Source: a virus
Lineage: Duplodnaviria; Heunggongvirae; Uroviricota; Caudoviricetes
Virus record (IMG/VR): IMGVR_UViG_2531839486_000015
Length of the DNA: 13,044 nt
Direction: 5' to 3' (one strand)
Part shown: positions 1,768 to 10,424 of the stretch, piece after piece
Numbering within the stretch: position 1 is the first letter of the stretch
Layout of the letters: every line of letters begins with the position of its first letter
The notes under the pieces: model-generated
Seen by the model: the letters and a program-made list of their open reading frames with translations, nothing else
Told to the model about the DNA's origin: nothing
Databases searched by the model: none
Program-made: the position numbers and the translations under genes

Positions 1768-2306
1768 TATGCAGCCCTCACGATATAGTTAAATGCAATA
1801 TTACGTGGACGCGTTTCTGAGGCTGCGGCACCTAAACCAGCCACTGATTGTTTATATGTTTTAAAGGTTCCATAATCCGGTGCTGGTAATCCGGCATCGT
1901 TTGTGTTTCCTCTTTTGATAATGTCAGTGCCACTATTTACCCAGCTTTCATCAAAATAAAAATTAATCGTTGCATCAGTCACAATCGTGGATCTTGACGG
2001 TAATCCATGAGCATGATCCTCCGTTGCATACCCCTGAACAGTGAGAAGACTTCGCCCATTATCTACACCACGCCCATCATCCCAGCCACGAATAAACTCA
2101 CCGCGTAAATCAGGCAATTTATTTGTCGGGTAAGCCTTCGCCAGCTTAGGATATTCAACGGCAGAAAAAGCCGCACCGTTACATTTCAGCCAGCCAGTAG
2201 GCGGTGTTGCAGAAGGCCACGGAACAGGCACACCAACGGGTAATGCCGAACCTTCTCCCAAACCAACGTTTAAGAAAATGCAGCGATTACGACTAACTGG
2301 CATCAT
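1767..2306 (-). CDS. Tail-fibre C-terminal variable cassette B with phage tail-collar-like domain
   Basis: 179 aa; after the shared 18-aa leader it contains ...WPSATPPTGWLKCNGAAFSAVEYPKLA...LPDLRGEFIRGWDDGRG..., the hallmark motif of the phage tail-fibre collar domain. Confidence 0.7.
   Translation of the reverse strand: MMPVSRNRCIFLNVGLGEGSALPVGVPVPWPSATPPTGWLKCNGAAFSAVEYPKLAKAYPTNKLPDLRGEFIRGWDDGRGVDNGRSLLTVQGYATEDHAHGLPSRSTIVTDATINFYFDESWVNSGTDIIKRGNTNDAGLPAPDYGTFKTYKQSVAGLGAAASETRPRNIAFNYIVRAA
2253..2278. other. 26-bp Hin/Gin-type inversion crossover site (right): ttctcccaaacc-aa-cgtttaagaaaa, inverted relative to 281-306
   Basis: Inverted copy of the 281-306 site, differing at one base in the outer half-site (2273 vs 286). 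It sits 50-56 bp upstream of the invertase start. Confidence 0.65.
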
Positions 2307-2558
2307 CCCCGATTTTTATTCAAGGAGATGATCATGCTTATTGGCTATGTACGCGTGTCAACAAATGACCAGAACACCGATTTGCAACGTAGTGCGCTGA
2401 ACTGCGCGGGATGTGAGCGGATTTTTGAGGATAAAATCAGCGGCACTAAGTCCGACAGACCGGGGCTGAAAAAACTGCTCAGGACACTATCGGCAGGAGA
2501 CACGCTGGTTGTCTGGAAGCTGGACAGGTTGGGGCGCAGTATGCGGCATCTTGTTACG
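2253..2558. repeat. Right arm of the long inverted repeat; covers the crossover site, the invertase leader and the first 75 codons of the invertase
   Basis: Same comparison as the left arm. The right arm extends at least to 2558 and may be longer, since the left arm is cut by the window edge. Confidence 0.9.
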
Positions 2559-2900
2559 CTGATAGAAGAGTTACGCCAGCGTGGTGTGAATTTCAGAAGC
2601 CTGACTGACAGTATTGATACCAGTACCCCAATGGGCCGTTTCTTTTTTCATGTCATGGGTGCCCTGGCTGAAATGGAACGCGAACTGATAGTTGAACGTA
2701 CCAGGGCAGGGCTGGCTGCAGCTCGTGCCAAAGGCAGAGTAGGTGGACGCCGTCCTAAGTTGACCACCGAACAGTGGGCACAGATTGGGCGTTTACTCGA
2801 GGCCGGAGAATCAAGACAGCGTATTGCACTGATTTTTGATGTAGGCGTTTCTACCATTTATAGAAAATTTCCGGCAAATAAGAGCAATGAATCCCCCTGA
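2334..2900 (+). CDS. Site-specific serine DNA invertase, Gin/Pin/Hin/Cin family
   Basis: MLIGYVRVSTNDQNTDLQR... N-terminus with catalytic Ser9 context; ...VVWKLDRLGRS...; C-terminal helix-turn-helix ...GVSTIYRKF. AAGGAG at 2322-2327 sits 6 nt before the ATG at 2334; the longer ORF from 2328 has no spacing to that Shine-Dalgarno. Confidence 0.92.
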   Translation: MLIGYVRVSTNDQNTDLQRSALNCAGCERIFEDKISGTKSDRPGLKKLLRTLSAGDTLVVWKLDRLGRSMRHLVTLIEELRQRGVNFRSLTDSIDTSTPMGRFFFHVMGALAEMERELIVERTRAGLAAARAKGRVGGRRPKLTTEQWAQIGRLLEAGESRQRIALIFDVGVSTIYRKFPANKSNESP

Positions 2901-2948
2901 ATCAGCATTATTTTGATTATCCCTGCAAGTAGACAAATACCGTCATTT

Positions 2949-2966
2949 TGTGTGAATAACGACACA
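2949..2966 (+). promoter_or_regulatory. Candidate Ogr/Delta activator binding site (TGT-N12-ACA) of a P2-type late promoter upstream of FI
   Basis: TGTGTGAATAACGACACA fits TGT-N12-ACA exactly, 77-94 bp upstream of the FI start codon, in the 142-bp gap between the invertase and FI. This is consistent with the site being centred near -55 of a late promoter. Confidence 0.45.
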
Positions 2967-3042
2967 ACTGCGCTTAGCTGTTTGTCAGGCACAATCACTT
3001 CAACATAGGGCGAAGCCTAATCCAATCAGGAGGTTCGCCACT

Positions 3043-4215
3043 ATGGCTCAGGATTACCACCACGGGGTGCGCGTTGTTGAAGTCAACGAAGGCACCCGAT
3101 CTATTACCACGGTGAGCACCGCCATCGTGGGTATGGTCTGCACGGGCGATGATGCCGATGCAAAAATGTTTCCTCTTAATAAACCCGTGCTGATCACTGA
3201 TGTGCTGACTGCCAGCGGTAAAGCGGGTGAGTCAGGTACTCTGGCCCGTTCGCTGGATGCCATCGCTGACCAGGCAAAACCCGTGACCATTGTTGTGCGT
3301 GTGCCGCAGGGTGAAACGGAAGACGAAACCACGACCAATATCATCGGCGCAGTGACTGCTGAAGGTAAAAAAACAGGTATGAAAGCCCTGTTATCTGCCC
3401 AGTCACAGCTCGGCGTTAAACCGCGCATTCTCGGCGTGCCAGGCCACGACACCAAGGCGGTAGCTACTGAGTTGCTAAGCGTGGCGCAAAGCCTGCGTGG
3501 ATTTGCTTACCTGTCAGCGTATGGCTGCAAGACAGTGCAGGAGGCGATCACTTACCGCGAAAACTTCAGCCAGCGTGAAGGGATGCTGATCTGGCCTGAC
3601 TTTACTGGCTGGGACACGGTGCTGAATGCCGAAGCAACGGCATATGCCACCGCCCGTGCGCTTGGTCTGCGCGCCAAAATTGACGAGCAGACCGGATGGC
3701 ACAAAAGCCTGTCCAACGTGGGCGTGAACGGTGTCACCGGAATTTCTGCAGATGTGTTCTGGGATCTGCAGGACCCGGCAACCGATGCAGGTCTGCTGAA
3801 CCAGAACGACGTCACCACGCTTGTGCGTAAAGACGGTTTCCGCTTCTGGGGTTCCCGCTGCCTGAGTGATGACCCGCTCTTTGCCTTCGAAAACTACACC
3901 CGCACGGCGCAGGTGCTGATGGACACGATTGCAGAAGCACACATGTGGGCGGTGGATAAACCTCTTAACCCGTCGCTGGCCCGCGACATTATCGAAGGTA
4001 TCCGCGCCAAAATGCGCAGCCTGGTCAGTCAGGGCTATCTCATTGGTGGTGATTGCTGGCTGGATGAGTCGGTGAACGACAAAGACACGCTGAAAGCCGG
4101 AAAACTCACCATCGACTATGACTACACGCCAGTGCCGCCACTTGAAAATCTGATGCTGCGCCAGCGCATCACCGATCAGTACCTGGTGAATTTTGCCAGC
4201 CAGGTCAGCGCGTAA
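3043..4215 (+). CDS. FI: Contractile tail sheath protein (P2 gpFI-like)
   Basis: 390 aa; N-terminus [19 protein letters not shown]...[10 protein letters not shown]... is characteristic of P2 FI sheath; AGGAGG Shine-Dalgarno 9 nt upstream; first gene of the late operon. Confidence 0.9.
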
Positions 4216-4224
4216 GGGGACAAC

Positions 4225-4740
4225 ATGGCTTTACCACGCAAATTAAAACATCTGAACCTGTTTAACGACGGGAACAACTGGCAGGGGATCGTAGAGTCGC
4301 TGACGCTGCCGAAATTCACCCGCAAATATGAGAAGTATCGCGGCGGCGGAATGCCGGGGGCAGTAGATGTGGATCTGGGGCTTGATGACAGTGCGCTGGA
4401 CACAGAATTTTCCATTGGTGGTACTGAACTGCTGCTGTTTAAGCAGATGGGCAAAGCCACTGTGGATGGCATCCAGCTGCGCTTTACCGGCTCTATCCAG
4501 CGTGACGATACCGGGGAAGTGCAGGCTGTGGAGCTTGTGGTGCGTGGACGTCACAAAGAAGTGGATTCCGGCGAGTGGAAGACGGGCGAAAGCAACACCA
4601 CCAAAGTGACCAGTACCAACAGCTACGCGAAGCTGACCATCAATGGTGAGGTGCTCTATGAAGTGGACCTTATCAACATGGTGGAAATTGTGGATGGTGT
4701 GGACCTGATGGAAGCACACCGCAACGCACTCGGCCTCTGA
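4225..4740 (+). CDS. FII: Tail tube protein (P2 gpFII-like)
   Basis: 171 aa, size and position immediately after the sheath gene; Shine-Dalgarno AAGGGGA upstream. Confidence 0.88.
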   Translation: MALPRKLKHLNLFNDGNNWQGIVESLTLPKFTRKYEKYRGGGMPGAVDVDLGLDDSALDTEFSIGGTELLLFKQMGKATVDGIQLRFTGSIQRDDTGEVQAVELVVRGRHKEVDSGEWKTGESNTTKVTSTNSYAKLTINGEVLYEVDLINMVEIVDGVDLMEAHRNALGL

Positions 4741-4794: not shown

Positions 4795-5097
4795 ATGAGC
4801 GATAAGCAGACTGAAAAGACCATTCAACTGGATACCCCCATCAAGCGCGGTAAAACGGAAATCACCGAAATTGTGCTGCGTAAACCGCAGTCCGGTGCGC
4901 TGCGCGGTACACGCCTGCAGGCCATTATGGATATGGATGTAAACGCGATGATGACCGTGATCCCCCGCATCTCCAGTCCGGCACTGACTGCACAGGAAAT
5001 TGCAGAGATGGACCCGGCAGATCTCACTGCCATGTCGGTTGAGGTTGTCACTTTTTTGTTGAAGAAGTCGGTGCTTGCCGGTTTACCGACAGCCTGA
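4795..5097 (+). CDS. E: Tail assembly chaperone gpE (zero-frame product)
   Basis: 100-aa ORF between the tube and tape-measure genes; contains slippery heptamer T_TTT_TTG at 5052-5058 near its 3' end. Confidence 0.8.
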   Translation: MSDKQTEKTIQLDTPIKRGKTEITEIVLRKPQSGALRGTRLQAIMDMDVNAMMTVIPRISSPALTAQEIAEMDPADLTAMSVEVVTFLLKKSVLAGLPTA

Positions 5098-5231
5098 CGG
5101 TTGACGATCTGGTGGCAGATATCGCCACCATTTTTCACTGGCCGCCATCCGTTACTGACGTTATGCCGCTGACCGAAGTGCTGGAATGGCGGTATAAAGC
5201 GATTCAGAGAAGCGGGGCCAACGATGAGTGA
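4795..5231 (+). CDS. E: Tail assembly chaperone gpE+E' (-1 programmed frameshift product; join 4795..5058 with 5058..5231)
   Basis: After a -1 slip at 5052-5058 the -1 frame stays open for 57 codons (VEEVGACRFTDSLTVDDLVADIATIFHWPPSVTDVMPLTEVLEWRYKAIQRSGANDE) to TGA at 5229-5231, overlapping the T start at 5224. Total about 145 aa, close to P2 E+E' size as I recall it. Confidence 0.65.
5052..5058 (+). other. -1 ribosomal frameshift slippery heptamer TTTTTTG (X_XXY_YYZ in the gpE frame)
   Basis: Codons ACT TTT TTG in the E frame; heptamer directly visible in the sequence. Confidence 0.65.
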
Positions 5232-8200
5232 TAACAACCTGCGTCTGCAGGTCATTCTTAATGCGGTTGACAAGCTCACCCGCCCATTTCGATCTGCGCA
5301 GGCCAGTTCAAGAGAACTGGCTGCTGCTGTCAAAAAATCCCGCGATGCAATAAAGCAGCTTGATCAGGCCGGGAGCAGTCTGGACAGCTTCCGAAAGCTG
5401 CAGGCAGAAAATCAGAAATTAGGCGACAGGCTGAACTATGCCCGCCAGCGTGCAAATTTGCTCAGTCAGGAACTGGGTGCGATGGGGCCGCCTTCGCAAC
5501 GTCAGGTTGTTGCTCTGGGCCGTCAACGGCTGGCTGTTCAGCGCCTGGAAGAACGCCAGAAAAAGCTGCAGCAGCAGACGGCGCTTGTGCGTGCTGAACT
5601 GTACCGGGCGGGAATTTCTGCGAAAGACGATGCGGGAGCAACTGCCCGTTTAGCCCGTGAAACATCACGTTATAACCAGGAACTTTCGAAACAGGAGGCG
5701 CGGCTGAAGCGACTGGGGGAAGCTCAGCGCAGGATGAATGCAGCGCGTGTCAGTTATGCCCGTTCGCTGGAGGTGCGTGATCGTATTGCAGGTGCCGGAG
5801 CCACCACCACGGCTGCAGGGCTGGCAATGGGCGCACCAGTGATGGCGGCAGTAAAAAGCTATACCAGCATGGAAGATGCCATGAAAGGTGTGGCAAAGCA
5901 GGTCAATGGTCTGCGTGACGATAATGGCAACCGCACTGCACGTTTTTATGAAATGCAGGATGCCATCAAGGCTGCCAGCGAACAGTTGCCGATGGAAAAC
6001 GGTGCGGTGGATTTCGCTGCACTGGTTGAAGGTGGTGCGCGCATGAACGTCGCAAACCCTGACGACAGTTGGGAAGATCAGAAACGTGACCTGCTGGCCT
6101 TCGCCAGTACGGCAGCAAAGGCGGCAACAGCCTTTGAGCTGCCAGCGGATGAACTGTCAGAAAGTCTGGGGAAAATCGCCCAGCTCTACAAAATCCCCAC
6201 CCGCAATATTGAACAGCTCGGTGATGCGCTGAACTATCTGGATGATAACGCCATGTCGAAAGGGGCAGACATCATTGATGTGATGCAACGTCTGGGCGGT
6301 GTGGCTGACCGTCTGGATTATCGTAAAGCGGCGGCGCTGGGTTCCACCTTCCTGACACTGGGCGCTGCGCCAGAGGTTGCAGCCAGTGCAGCAAACGCGA
6401 TGGTGCGTGAATTGTCCATTGCCACCATGCAAAGCAAAAGTTTCTTTGAAGGGATGAATCTGCTGAAACTCAATCCTGAAGTGATTGAAAAGCAGATGAC
6501 GAAGGATGCGATGGGAACCATCCAGCGCGTGCTGGAGAAGGTAAACGCGCTGCCGCAGGACAAGCGCCTGTCTGCCATGACTATGTTGTTTGGTAAAGAG
6601 TTTGGCGATGACGCGGCGAAACTGGCAAACAACCTGCCGGAACTGCAGCGTCAGTTAAAACTGACAGCGGGCAATGATGCGCTCGGCTCCATGCAGAAAG
6701 AATCCGACATTAACAAGGATTCACTTTCTGCGCAGTGGTTGCTGGTCAAAACCGGAGCGCAGAACACCTTCAGCAGCCTGGGCGAAACGCTGCGCCAGCC
6801 GCTGATGGATATTCTGTACACGGTGAAAAGCGTCACGGGGGCGTTGCGTCGCTGGGTGGAAGCTAACCCGGAACTGACAGGCACACTGATGAAAGCATCG
6901 GCTGTTGTGGCTGCGGTTACCGTCGGCCTCGGCACCTTAGCGGTGGCGCTGGCTGCAGTGCTGGGGCCGCTGGCAGTGATCCGTCTGGGATTCTCTGTGT
7001 TGGGTATCAAAACGTTATCTTCCGTTACGGCAGCAGTAACTCGAACCAGCAGCGCGTTGTCCTGGCTGGCTGGCGCGCCACTGGCACTGCTGCGACGCGG
7101 GCTTGCTTCATCGGGCAACGCCGCAGGGTTACTTACTGCGCCGTTGTCGTCTTTGCGCCGCACGGCATCACTGACGGGAAATGTCCTGAAAACTGTAGCA
7201 GGTGCGCCGGTTGCACTTTTGCGGTCTGGATTATCCGGTTTACGTGCTGTTGCTGTGATGTTTATGAATCCTCTGGCGGTACTGCGCGGTGGACTGGCCG
7301 CCGCAGGCACGGTGCTGCGAGTACTGGCATCTGGTCCACTGGCGATGCTGCGCGTTGCCCTGTATGCCATATCTGGTCTGTTAGGTGCTCTGCTCAGTCC
7401 GATAGGTCTTGTGGTTACTGCACTGGCGGGCGTGGCGCTGGTTGTCTGGAAATACTGGCAACCCATCACCGCATTTCTCGGTGGCGTGGTGGAAGGATTC
7501 AAAGCGGCGGCAGGTCCCATCAGTGCAGCGTTCGAACCGCTTAAGCCCGTGTTCCAGTGGATTGGCGACAAAGTGCAGGCGCTGTGGGGCTGGTTTACTG
7601 ATCTGCTGACGCCCGTTAAGTCGACCTCTGCCGAACTGCAGAGCGCAGCGGCAATGGGGCGACGATTCGGGGAGGCACTGGCGGAAGGGCTGAATATGGT
7701 CATGCATCCGCTGGACTCCCTGAAATCCGGCGTTTCCTGGTTGCTGGATAAACTCGGCATTGTCAGTAAAGAGGCTGCAAAGGCGAAACTGCCGGAAAGC
7801 GTGACGCGTCAGCAACCTGCGACGGTGAATGCAGACGGTAAAGTGATGATGCCATCGGGTGGTTTTCCGTCATGGGGATATGGCTTTGCGGGGATGTATG
7901 ACAGCGGCGGCTATATCCCGCGCGGGCAGTTCGGCATTGTCGGTGAAAACGGGCCGGAAATTGTCAACGGTCCGGCAAACGTGACCAGCCGGAGAAATAC
8001 CGCTGCACTGGCTGCGGTTGTCGCCGGAATGATGGGAGTTGCTGCCGCGCCAGCAGAGCTTCCACCGTTGCATCCTTTGGCGCTTCCCGCGAAAGGCGGT
8101 GAAGCGATGGTGAGTCGCGTAGCTGCTGTGCCGCCCGTTCACCGGATTGAGGCACCGACGCAGATCATCATCCAGACGCAGCCAGGACAAAGTGCGCAGG

Positions 8201-8301
8201 ATATTGCGCGGGAGGTGGCCCGCCAGCTTGATGAACGTGAACGCAGGCTGAAGGCAAAAGCCAGGAGTAACTACAGCGATCAGGGGGGATACGACGCATG
8301 A
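5224..8301 (+). CDS. T: Tail tape measure protein (P2 gpT-like)
   Basis: 1025 aa; coiled-coil-rich N-terminal third, a central hydrophobic region with tandem ~22-aa repeats, and its position after E/E'. Confidence 0.9.
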   Translation: MSDNNLRLQVILNAVDKLTRPFRSAQASSRELAAAVKKSRDAIKQLDQAGSSLDSFRKLQAENQKLGDRLNYARQRANLLSQELGAMGPPSQRQVVALGRQRLAVQRLEERQKKLQQQTALVRAELYRAGISAKDDAGATARLARETSRYNQELSKQEARLKRLGEAQRRMNAARVSYARSLEVRDRIAGAGATTTAAGLAMGAPVMAAVKSYTSMEDAMKGVAKQVNGLRDDNGNRTARFYEMQDAIKAASEQLPMENGAVDFAALVEGGARMNVANPDDSWEDQKRDLLAFASTAAKAATAFELPADELSESLGKIAQLYKIPTRNIEQLGDALNYLDDNAMSKGADIIDVMQRLGGVADRLDYRKAAALGSTFLTLGAAPEVAASAANAMVRELSIATMQSKSFFEGMNLLKLNPEVIEKQMTKDAMGTIQRVLEKVNALPQDKRLSAMTMLFGKEFGDDAAKLANNLPELQRQLKLTAGNDALGSMQKESDINKDSLSAQWLLVKTGAQNTFSSLGETLRQPLMDILYTVKSVTGALRRWVEANPELTGTLMKASAVVAAVTVGLGTLAVALAAVLGPLAVIRLGFSVLGIKTLSSVTAAVTRTSSALSWLAGAPLALLRRGLASSGNAAGLLTAPLSSLRRTASLTGNVLKTVAGAPVALLRSGLSGLRAVAVMFMNPLAVLRGGLAAAGTVLRVLASGPLAMLRVALYAISGLLGALLSPIGLVVTALAGVALVVWKYWQPITAFLGGVVEGFKAAAGPISAAFEPLKPVFQWIGDKVQALWGWFTDLLTPVKSTSAELQSAAAMGRRFGEALAEGLNMVMHPLDSLKSGVSWLLDKLGIVSKEAAKAKLPESVTRQQPATVNADGKVMMPSGGFPSWGYGFAGMYDSGGYIPRGQFGIVGENGPEIVNGPANVTSRRNTAALAAVVAGMMGVAAAPAELPPLHPLALPAKGGEAMVSRVAAVPPVHRIEAPTQIIIQTQPGQSAQDIAREVARQLDERERRLKAKARSNYSDQGGYDA

Positions 8302-8783
8302 TGATGGTGCTGGGATTGTACGTGTTTATGCTGCGCACCGTTCCGTATCAGGAACTGCAGTATCAACGCAGCTGGCGACATGCGGCAAACAGTCGGGTAA
8401 ACCGACGTCCGTCCACGCAGTTTCTGGGACCGGAAAACGACATGCTGACGCTTTCCGGTGTTCTTATGCCGGAAATAACAGGCGGCAGGCTGTCGTTGCT
8501 GGCACTGGAGCAGATGGCAGAACAGGGGAAAGCATGGCCCCTGATTGAAGGCAGCGGCACGATTTACGGCATGTATGTGATTGAGGGACTGAATCAGACT
8601 AAAACGGAGTTTTTCCGCGACGGTATGCCGCGCCGGATTGAGTTCACCCTGTCGCTAAAACGCGTGGATGAATCCCTGCCCGATATGTTCGGTGATCTCA
8701 GTGCGCAACTGAATAATCTGCAGGGAACGGCAACATCTGCCTTAAGCGATATCAGTAAAACGGTGGGAGGGCTGCTGTCGTGA
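8298..8783 (+). CDS. U: Tail protein gpU-like
   Basis: 161 aa; ATGA start/stop overlap with T; position and size match P2 U. Confidence 0.8.
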   Translation: MMMVLGLYVFMLRTVPYQELQYQRSWRHAANSRVNRRPSTQFLGPENDMLTLSGVLMPEITGGRLSLLALEQMAEQGKAWPLIEGSGTIYGMYVIEGLNQTKTEFFRDGMPRRIEFTLSLKRVDESLPDMFGDLSAQLNNLQGTATSALSDISKTVGGLLS

Positions 8784-9880
8784 ATTTCAGCTCTGAACTG
8801 CTTAACAAAGGCAACAAAACTCCGGCATTCAGCATCAGTATTGAAGGCAGGGATATCACCACTGTGCTGGACAACCGCCTGATGGGGCTGACGCTGACGG
8901 ATAACCGGGGCTTTGAAGCGGACCAGCTTGATCTGGAGCTGGACGACGCCGATGGAAAAATCGTGCTGCCGCGCCGTGGTGCGGTCATTACGCTGGCGCT
9001 GGGCTGGAAGGGGCAGCCGCTTTTCCCGAAAGGGGCATTCACGGTGGACGAGATTGAACACACTGGCGCACCGGACCGCCTGACTATCCGGGCGCGAAGT
9101 GCTGATTTTCGTGAAACGCTGAATACCCGTCGTGAAAAGTCGTGGCACAAGACCACTGTCGGGGAAGTGGTGAAGGAAATAGCCGCGCGTCATAAGCTGA
9201 AGATGGCACTGGGTAAAGACCTGTCGGATAAGCCCGTGGAGCATATAGACCAGACTAATGAGAGTGACGGCAGTTTTCTGATGCGGCTGGCGCGCCAGTA
9301 CGGTGCCATCGCGTCGGTGAAAAATGGCAATCTGTTATTCATCCGGCAGGGACAGGGCAAAAGCGCCAGCGGTAAACCACTGCCGGTGATCTCAATCACA
9401 CGTAAGGACGGCGACAGTCACCGCTTTACCCTGGCAGATCGCGGAGCCTACACGGGCGTAATTGCCAGTTGGTTGCATACCCGCGAACCCGCGAAGAAAG
9501 AAAGCACCACGGTGAAGCGTAAGCGCAGGACTAAGAAGCAGAAGAAAGAGCCGGAAGCGAAGCAGGGCGATTACCTGGGGGGTACGGATGAAAACGTGCT
9601 GGTACTTAATCGCACTTATGCCAACCGGAGCAACGCCGAACGGGCAGCGAAAATGCAGTGGGAACGCCTGCAACGCGGCGTTGCATCATTCTCGCTACAA
9701 CTGGCGGAAGGGCGGGCAGATCTCTACACAGAAATGCCTGTGAAGGTCAGTGGCTTTAAACAGCCGATAGATGATGCGGAATGGACCATTACGACTCTGA
9801 CGCATACCGTCAGCCCCGATAACGGTTTTACAACCAGTCTGGAGCTTGAAGTGAGGATTGATGATTTCGAAATGGAATGA
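8780..9880 (+). CDS. D: Tail protein gpD-like (late gene D)
   Basis: 366 aa; GTG start overlapping the U stop, with GGGAGG Shine-Dalgarno 9 nt upstream; position before ogr as in P2. Confidence 0.8.
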   Translation: MNFSSELLNKGNKTPAFSISIEGRDITTVLDNRLMGLTLTDNRGFEADQLDLELDDADGKIVLPRRGAVITLALGWKGQPLFPKGAFTVDEIEHTGAPDRLTIRARSADFRETLNTRREKSWHKTTVGEVVKEIAARHKLKMALGKDLSDKPVEHIDQTNESDGSFLMRLARQYGAIASVKNGNLLFIRQGQGKSASGKPLPVISITRKDGDSHRFTLADRGAYTGVIASWLHTREPAKKESTTVKRKRRTKKQKKEPEAKQGDYLGGTDENVLVLNRTYANRSNAERAAKMQWERLQRGVASFSLQLAEGRADLYTEMPVKVSGFKQPIDDAEWTITTLTHTVSPDNGFTTSLELEVRIDDFEME

Positions 9881-9970
9881 TTCTTCGCAATGGAGAACTT
9901 TTAAGTTTGCAAAATGGAATAATGCGGTATCATTATTGTGAATTTAGCAAAAATGGGGAGAACTCGAAAA

Positions 9971-10189
9971 ATGATGATTTGCCCACTGTGTGGAAGTGCC
10001 GCCCATACTCGTAGCAGTTTTCAGGTATCTTCATTGACCAAAGAGCGTTACAACCAGTGCCAGAACATTAACTGCAGCCATACTTTTGTTACCCATGAAA
10101 CTTTTGTTCGTTCGATTGCAACGCCAAAAGAGTCAAATCCGGTTCAGCCGCATCCAATGAAATCAGGACAGGTGGCGCTCTCTCTTTGA
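9971..10189 (+). CDS. ogr: Ogr/Delta-family zinc-finger late transcription activator
   Basis: 72 aa from the ATG at 9971: MMICPLCGSAAHTRS...KERYNQCQNINCSHTF... with C-X2-C...C-X4-C zinc finger. This length matches P2 Ogr; the longer ORF from 9938 adds 11 residues not expected in the family. Confidence 0.85.
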   Translation: MMICPLCGSAAHTRSSFQVSSLTKERYNQCQNINCSHTFVTHETFVRSIATPKESNPVQPHPMKSGQVALSL

Positions 10190-10424
10190 CGCTGCCGCCA
10201 ATTTGTCGCCATCGTTAAAAAACAGCGCTTCTAACATCATGATTTTAAAAGGCATAAATTTCAGGCAACAAAAAACCCATCAACCTTGAACCGAAATGGC
10301 GGGGGTGATGGGCTCCACAAAATGGGGACATCAAAGAAAAGCAGTGGCACTAATTAAGACTGATGCCCTGCGGAAAAGTTCTGCGGTTGTGCAAAAAAAT
10401 TTCATTTTCAGGGCAACTTCAGTT

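Follow-up and report, generated by a model that had tools for sequence, protein, structure and literature searches.

The control of late transcription in phage P2 has been textbook biology since the 1980s, and it offers the closest described parallel to the locus analysed here. The four P2 late promoters have the inverted repeat TGT-N12-ACA in common and depend on the activator Ogr (PMC3931495). The inverted repeats bound by Ogr have their centres near -55, and Ogr must contact RNA polymerase's alpha subunit; Ogr-dependent late transcription needs the contact with the C-terminal domain of this subunit and is blocked by rpoA109 (PMC3152322). In the RefSeq record of P2 (NC_001895), activator sites and mapped starts are annotated at all four late promoters; at PF, the promoter of the tail operon, the activator site occupies positions 17555-17583 and the start 17626-17628. 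The distance from the centre of the dyad to the start is 55.5 nt at PO, PP and PV, and 56.5-58.5 nt at PF. A related arrangement is known from the Ralstonia P2-like phages phiRSY1 and phiRSA1, in which TGTTGT-N13-ACAACA precedes each late operon and the activator is an Ogr-like zinc-finger protein (PMC5694545); in these sites, longer half-sites are set 13 nt apart instead of 12.

The sequence analysed, hereafter the window, is a stretch of 13,044 nucleotides from an IMG/VR virus record (IMGVR_UViG_2531839486_000015). Judged by its sequence, it is the right-hand portion of a P2-like prophage of the Peduoviridae (Wadgaonvirus type) that adjoins E. coli ybjL. An invertible tail-fibre segment, with fibre tips and Caudo_TAP chaperones encoded on both strands (253-2306), is followed on the plus strand by a gene of a Din-family DNA invertase (2328-2900; Pfam Resolvase and HTH_7). 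The tail operon, also on the plus strand, starts with FI, the tail sheath gene (3043-4215; Pfam Phage_sheath_1, Phage_sheath_1C and Gp18_domIII_N), whose product shares 99.5% identity with the phage 500465-1 sheath. It continues with FII, encoding the tail tube (4225-4740; Pfam Phage_tube, E-value 9e-60), and with the tail assembly chaperone gene E (4795-5097) and its E' frame (5112-5231), both of which were placed using the open reading frame list and the annotation of 500465-1 at an offset of 9301; the transferred coordinates of E and E' were consistent with an E. coli sequence (L092). The genes of the tape measure protein T (5224-8301) and of the tail protein U (8298-8783) were assigned from the open reading frame list, the 500465-1 annotation and the same E. 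coli sequence, and the operon ends with gene D of the late control D / baseplate hub family (8780-9880; Pfam Phage_GPD). Past the end of the prophage lie the host genes rybB, ybjL and then further genes. Over 2700-3300, the identity was 99.2% with Escherichia phage 500465-1 (Peduoviridae, Wadgaonvirus) and 97-98% with several Klebsiella and Escherichia phages.

Both ends of the window showed further features. A full-length gene of the small RNA RybB was found on the minus strand at 10267-10345 (Rfam RF00110, 100 bits), 78 bp past the ogr stop codon and between the end of the prophage and ybjL; the right attachment site of the prophage is probably at or adjoining the 3' end of rybB. On the left, the Din-type invertible tail-fibre module (253-2900) comprises the invertase gene, 26-bp crossover sites at 282-307 and 2254-2279, and alternative sets of fibre tips and Caudo_TAP chaperones that are encoded on opposite strands; its place, after the fibre genes and before PF, is the one that Z/fun has in P2. 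Positions 1-307 of the window are the reverse complement of 2252-2558 with one mismatch (286 A versus 2273 T), and the latter stretch spans a crossover site, the 5' untranslated region of the invertase gene and its first 231 nt. At the position of 1-307, complete relatives carry the constant region of tail-fibre gene H, and the E. coli matches to the window begin at 293. Positions 1-307 are most likely a contig-end assembly chimera of both orientations of the invertible segment 308-2251.

The sequence TGTGTGAATAACGACACA at 2949-2966 is an exact TGT-N12-ACA with its centre at 2957.5. The dyad extends inwards to TGTGT-N8-ACACA, and its flanks give TTGT...ACAA, so that the conserved extended form TTGT..A.........ACAA spans 2948-2967. 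It lies in a 142-bp gap (2901-3042) that separates the invertase stop codon at 2900 from the ATG of FI at 3043, directly upstream of FI-FII-E-T-U-D, which is one of the late operons (P, O, V and F). The preliminary description of this DNA had reported an exact match within this gap, and its location was confirmed; it had also pointed to an intact ogr gene and had proposed, from these two features, that the tail operon remains under phage late control.

The match as such carries little weight. Five exact copies of TGT-N12-ACA occur in the window against 3.5 +/- 2.0 in its shuffled versions, 59 of 200 of which reach five or more, and when the dinucleotides of the 142-bp gap were shuffled 20,000 times, 6.2% of the resulting sequences contained the pattern anywhere. 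The string is also not specific, since PpsR/CrtJ of purple photosynthetic bacteria has TGT-N12-ACA as its operator consensus too; the strings are identical, whereas the protein family, the host and the function (repression of photosynthesis genes) are unrelated. Thus, the statistics of the bare pattern alone give no support for a function, and the dyad is significant because of its position and conservation, not because of the string itself. A functionless palindrome, with FI expression due to another signal or to transcripts that run on from the V operon or the invertase gene, would agree with these frequencies, as well as with the terminator scan of 2300-3300, which found none on the plus strand and so none between the invertase gene and PF. 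When the distance is considered, the same 20,000 shuffles contained a match centred 78-92 nt from the ATG in only 0.7% of cases. Together with the conservation of the site, its constant distance from FI in every relative and the recurrence of the motif in other late-promoter gaps, which are described below, this makes a chance match extremely improbable.

Relatives were collected by searching viral contigs with FI as the protein query, which gave 80 loci with FI identities of 90-100%. An exact TGT-N12-ACA was present in all 80, its centre 78.5-85.5 nt before the ATG of FI, a count that overstates independence as these relatives are phylogenetically related. The 68 distinct upstream regions among them contained 37 distinct 18-mers, the inner 12 nt of which vary freely, and a second match to the pattern was found in just 2 of 72 distinct upstream regions of 200 nt. 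For the six anchor bases, information content calculated on a motif-anchored alignment is circular; the analysis was therefore redone as an unanchored MAFFT alignment of the 68 distinct regions. In this alignment, T2948, T2949, G2950, T2951, A2955, A2964, C2965 and A2966 were 97-100% conserved, that is, the six outer bases of the dyad as well as T2948 and A2955, amid neighbours that vary: the flanking positions were 30-60% conserved, and those upstream of 2948 fell mostly into this range.

Between lineages, similarity collapses just upstream of T2948, and what lies there differs by relative: an invertase gene, a strong terminator or other genes. The exact start of inter-lineage homology at T2948 marks where the functional promoter begins, and the moron slot, whether it holds the invertase, Z/fun or a terminator, stops at this base. 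The PF regions of the Wadgaonvirus-type phages and prophages (Escherichia 500465-1 and Cartapus, Klebsiella Kp48xx-2 and KP12) are 97-99% identical to the window over 2700-3300, carry the identical dyad or a ..GGTACA allele, and have the same layout of invertase gene and FI; nothing material differs at the promoter, and the site is unannotated in their records.

More distant phages extend this pattern. The exact motif was found 81.5 nt upstream of FI in both Yersinia phage vB_YenM_31.17 (FI identity 70%) and Salmonella phage SEN4 (FI identity 52%), and pro483 has TGT-N12-CCA at 82.5 nt. No TGT-N12-ACA was present at the expected place in Burkholderia phiE202 or Aeromonas LPM4, nor within the short 62-bp gap between the invertase gene and FI in Erwinia ENT90 (L084, 332-395), which also has an invertase upstream. 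Direct reading of the sequences upstream of position 401 in Pseudomonas Dobby (L087) and Ralstonia RS-AB1 (L088) revealed TGT...ACA repeats with a 13-nt spacing, which match the Ralstonia consensus TGTTGT-N13-ACAACA (PMC5694545).

The dyad might also be read as an RNA element, namely a 6-bp stem TGTGTG...CACACA that forms a hairpin or terminator ending the invertase transcript, and in the minimum free energy fold of 2890-3045, UGUGUG does pair with the ACACA region that lies downstream. However, this short stem consists largely of AT and GU pairs, its loop has 8 nt, and it is followed by ACTGCGC instead of a U tract; the plus-strand scan of 2300-3300 was negative at this place as well. In the relatives, the complementarity of the inner stem is not kept, only the outer TGT and ACA are, and many of them retain the dyad despite a strong GC-rich terminator hairpin that ends about 10 nt before it. 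This reading was rejected on the terminator scan and the fold, and its probability is practically negligible.

As an activator site, the dyad agrees in its geometry with the mapped promoter PF of P2. In both phages the site immediately precedes FI, with which the series FI-FII-E-E'-T-U-D opens and after which ogr follows, and the centre of the dyad is 82.5 nt from the FI ATG in P2 and 85.5 nt in the window. The P2 dyad, TGTGCTGTCGATTAGCCA, is an imperfect TGT-N12-CCA with one mismatch, whereas that of the window is perfect and extended to TGTGT/ACACA. The upstream neighbours differ, a same-strand invertase gene in the window and the divergent Z/fun gene in P2, and apart from the half-sites the two promoter sequences barely align. 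A pairwise alignment with P2 PF was poor and misplaced the dyads, so distances were taken from the annotated P2 features instead.

Downstream of the dyad, a weak -35-like hexamer, cTGttt (2978-2983, plus strand, 2 of 6 consensus positions), contains only two conserved positions in the MAFFT alignment, T2979 (91%) and G2980 (100%). It lies 17 bp upstream of a -10-like hexamer, CAACAT (3001-3006, plus strand, 3 of 6), which fits the pattern NANNAT with A3002 97%, A3005 100% and T3006 97% conserved. CAACAT begins 43.5 nt from the centre of the dyad, as compared with 44.5 nt for the P2 PF hexamer GAAAAT, and 13 divergent lineages, among them P2, Yersinia vB_YenM_31.17 and Salmonella SEN4, have a NANNAT in the corresponding position. 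A consensus scan of the plus strand of 2300-3300 detected no sigma-70 promoter, the gap included, as one would predict for a promoter that depends on an activator. The preliminary description had put the transcription start near 3010; our estimate, based on the conserved -10-like hexamer and on A3013 (91% conserved), is close to it at 3013 (range 3012-3016, plus strand). A3013 is 55.5 nt from the centre of the dyad and 7 nt past the hexamer, and direct reading places the Shine-Dalgarno sequence of FI, AGGAGG, at 3028-3033 on the plus strand.

The same bases may be read as a binding site of the cAMP receptor protein (CRP), by which the tail operon would respond to the catabolite state of the host, as TGTGA-N6-ACACA at 2951-2966 (centre 2958.5) has 9 of the 10 bases of the core TGTGA-N6-TCACA. 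This 9/10 match is, however, confined to the allele of the window: the commonest allele of the relatives (..AACGGTACA) scores 8/10, and lineages with TGTGCCATTCCCCACACA or TGTATCAGCGACTATACA only 6-7/10 with the loss of key G residues, while TGT-N12-ACA is exact throughout. CRP acts from -61.5, -71.5 and further positions in steps of about 10.5 at class I promoters and from -41.5 at class II promoters; with a start near 3013 its centre would come to lie at -54.5, on none of the helical faces used by either class. The CRP reading was rejected on the lack of conservation of CRP-specific bases among the relatives and on the spacing. It is thus very improbable, and the overlap of the CRP-like core with the Ogr dyad is judged to be coincidental.

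Among the four late promoters, the window holds PF alone, so the comparison of the regulon was made on near-identical complete prophages. In 500465-1 (99% identical), the exact pattern occurs in the gap between P and O, as TTGTGTGGTTGTCGGTACAA, and in the gap before V, as TTGTATCAGCACTGATACAA. In both 500465-1 and the prophage of E. coli 2018-06-4CC (98% identical), these two gaps carry the longer form TTGT-N12-ACAA. The centre of the V-gap site is 55.5 nt from the V ATG in 500465-1 and 57.5 nt in 2018-06-4CC; at the leaderless PV of P2 the centre is 55.5 nt from the start. Three of the six matches in the 28.1 kb of 2018-06-4CC fall within its 1,522 intergenic bases, and these three lie in exactly the P/O, V and FI gaps.

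The ogr gene of the window (9971-10189, plus strand) is indeed intact. It encodes a late-gene activator of 72 aa that matches Pfam Ogr_Delta (PF04606, 78 bits), is of full length and contains the zinc motif CX2CX22CX4C (Cys4, Cys7, Cys30 and Cys35). It is 51% identical to P2 Ogr, also of 72 aa, with all four cysteines aligned. A sigma-70-like promoter, TTTGCA-16-TATCAT, was found upstream of the gene on the plus strand (9906-9933), and the P2 record likewise annotates a promoter of ogr's own in the same gap between D and ogr. No terminator was predicted between D and ogr, and the P2 record labels the terminator after ogr as 'for ogr transcript and F operon'; from both points, it is likely that PF transcripts read through into ogr.

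The Ogr proteins of the window and of 500465-1 (L002, 19250-19468) are only 63% identical, though the PF regions are 99% identical. It seems that activator alleles are freely swapped while the operator stays conserved, in line with the cross-activation known among Ogr-family members.

Taken together, the site shows every property that an Ogr-dependent late promoter has at the level of sequence, and the dyad at 2949-2966 is very probably the activator site of PF, with a predicted transcription start at about 3013. We infer Ogr binding, Ogr dependence, contact with the alpha subunit and the exact start from sequence features, the geometry relative to the mapped P2 promoters, conservation, the other late gaps and the intact ogr gene. 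The suggestion of phage late control made in the preliminary description is supported by the position and conservation of the site, the P2 geometry and the presence of ogr. In the proposed mechanism, Ogr would be made from its own promoter after induction and replication, and would bind the TGT and ACA half-sites centred at about -55.5. By touching the C-terminal domain of the alpha subunit, it would recruit the sigma-70 holoenzyme of RNA polymerase to a very weak promoter composed of the -35 cTGttt, the 17-bp spacer and the -10 cAacAT. Transcription from about 3013 would produce a leader of about 30 nt with the Shine-Dalgarno sequence AGGAGG and proceed through FI-FII-E/E'-T-U-D, after which, for lack of a predicted terminator in the D-ogr gap, it probably runs on into ogr.

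The region of the predicted start may also contribute to an RNA structure. A hairpin at 3004-3045 on the plus strand is formed by a 5' arm CATAGGGCGAA (3004-3014), which covers the -10/+1 region, and a 3' arm TTCGCCACTATG (3034-3045), which includes the FI ATG; its folding energy is -19.6 kcal/mol (z -4.85). The architecture is kept in other lineages with different, covarying arms (GGCAG/CTGCC, GGGTGAA/TTCATT and AGTCAC/GTGACT), in the Yersinia phage (ACTCTC/GAGAGT) and in P2 (CACTCACC/GGATGAGTG, z -3.9), the annotated start of which (17626-17628) is inside the 5' arm (17622-17629). Since MAFFT splits two registers of the hairpin into different columns, folds of individual lineages and an arm-swap comparison were used. 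Across 13 representatives, cognate duplexes averaged -10.8 kcal/mol versus -7.9 kcal/mol for non-cognate ones, and 1 of 20,000 permutations matched the cognate pairing, these representatives not being independent of each other. The hairpin was absent from two of the 13, L062 and SEN4. An RNA that begins at the predicted start, 3013, had no significant fold (z -0.3), Rfam gave no family match on 2850-3150 even at E<=1, and a hairpin at PO was unsupported (z -1.1 and -0.6). At PP of P2 (L003, 2988-3028, minus strand), a hairpin with the arms GCCTTGCCGTG/CACGGCGAGGT has -20.1 kcal/mol and z -5.0; the annotated start is where its 5' arm stops, and the Shine-Dalgarno sequence of gene P is covered by its 3' arm.

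A possible explanation, which we regard as tentative and rather doubtful, is fold-back insulation: the hairpin would form just in RNA started upstream, for instance when transcription runs on from the V operon or from the invertase gene, which lacks a terminator, and FI would be translated solely from PF transcripts initiated with Ogr. A hairpin restricted to read-through RNA fits the negative terminator scan between PF and the invertase gene on the same strand. In the fold-back inhibition of the IS10 transposase, a 5' arm that lies at the start of the element's own promoter, or upstream of it, pairs with the region in which translation begins, and just the RNA that begins upstream is blocked. 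The possible likeness to IS10 concerns the leader hairpin alone, and in P2 the mapped start is inside the 5' arm and not wholly downstream of it. If true, this would be a second, undescribed layer of control at PF and a case of IS10-like fold-back insulation in P2-family phages. The leaderless start of PV would have the same effect for V, and the two together would make the synthesis of late proteins strictly promoter-dependent.

The dyad itself is orthologous to an element that is well known, belongs to a common type of prophage and brings no new principle. At least 80% of the window is covered in 489 of 5,426 complete E. coli genomes; a transcription signal is now assigned to the tail operon of a prophage type present in about 9% of complete E. 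coli genomes. The circuit of activator and operator looks intact, and the prophage is therefore probably still inducible, or at least a producer of tails, rather than a decayed remnant.
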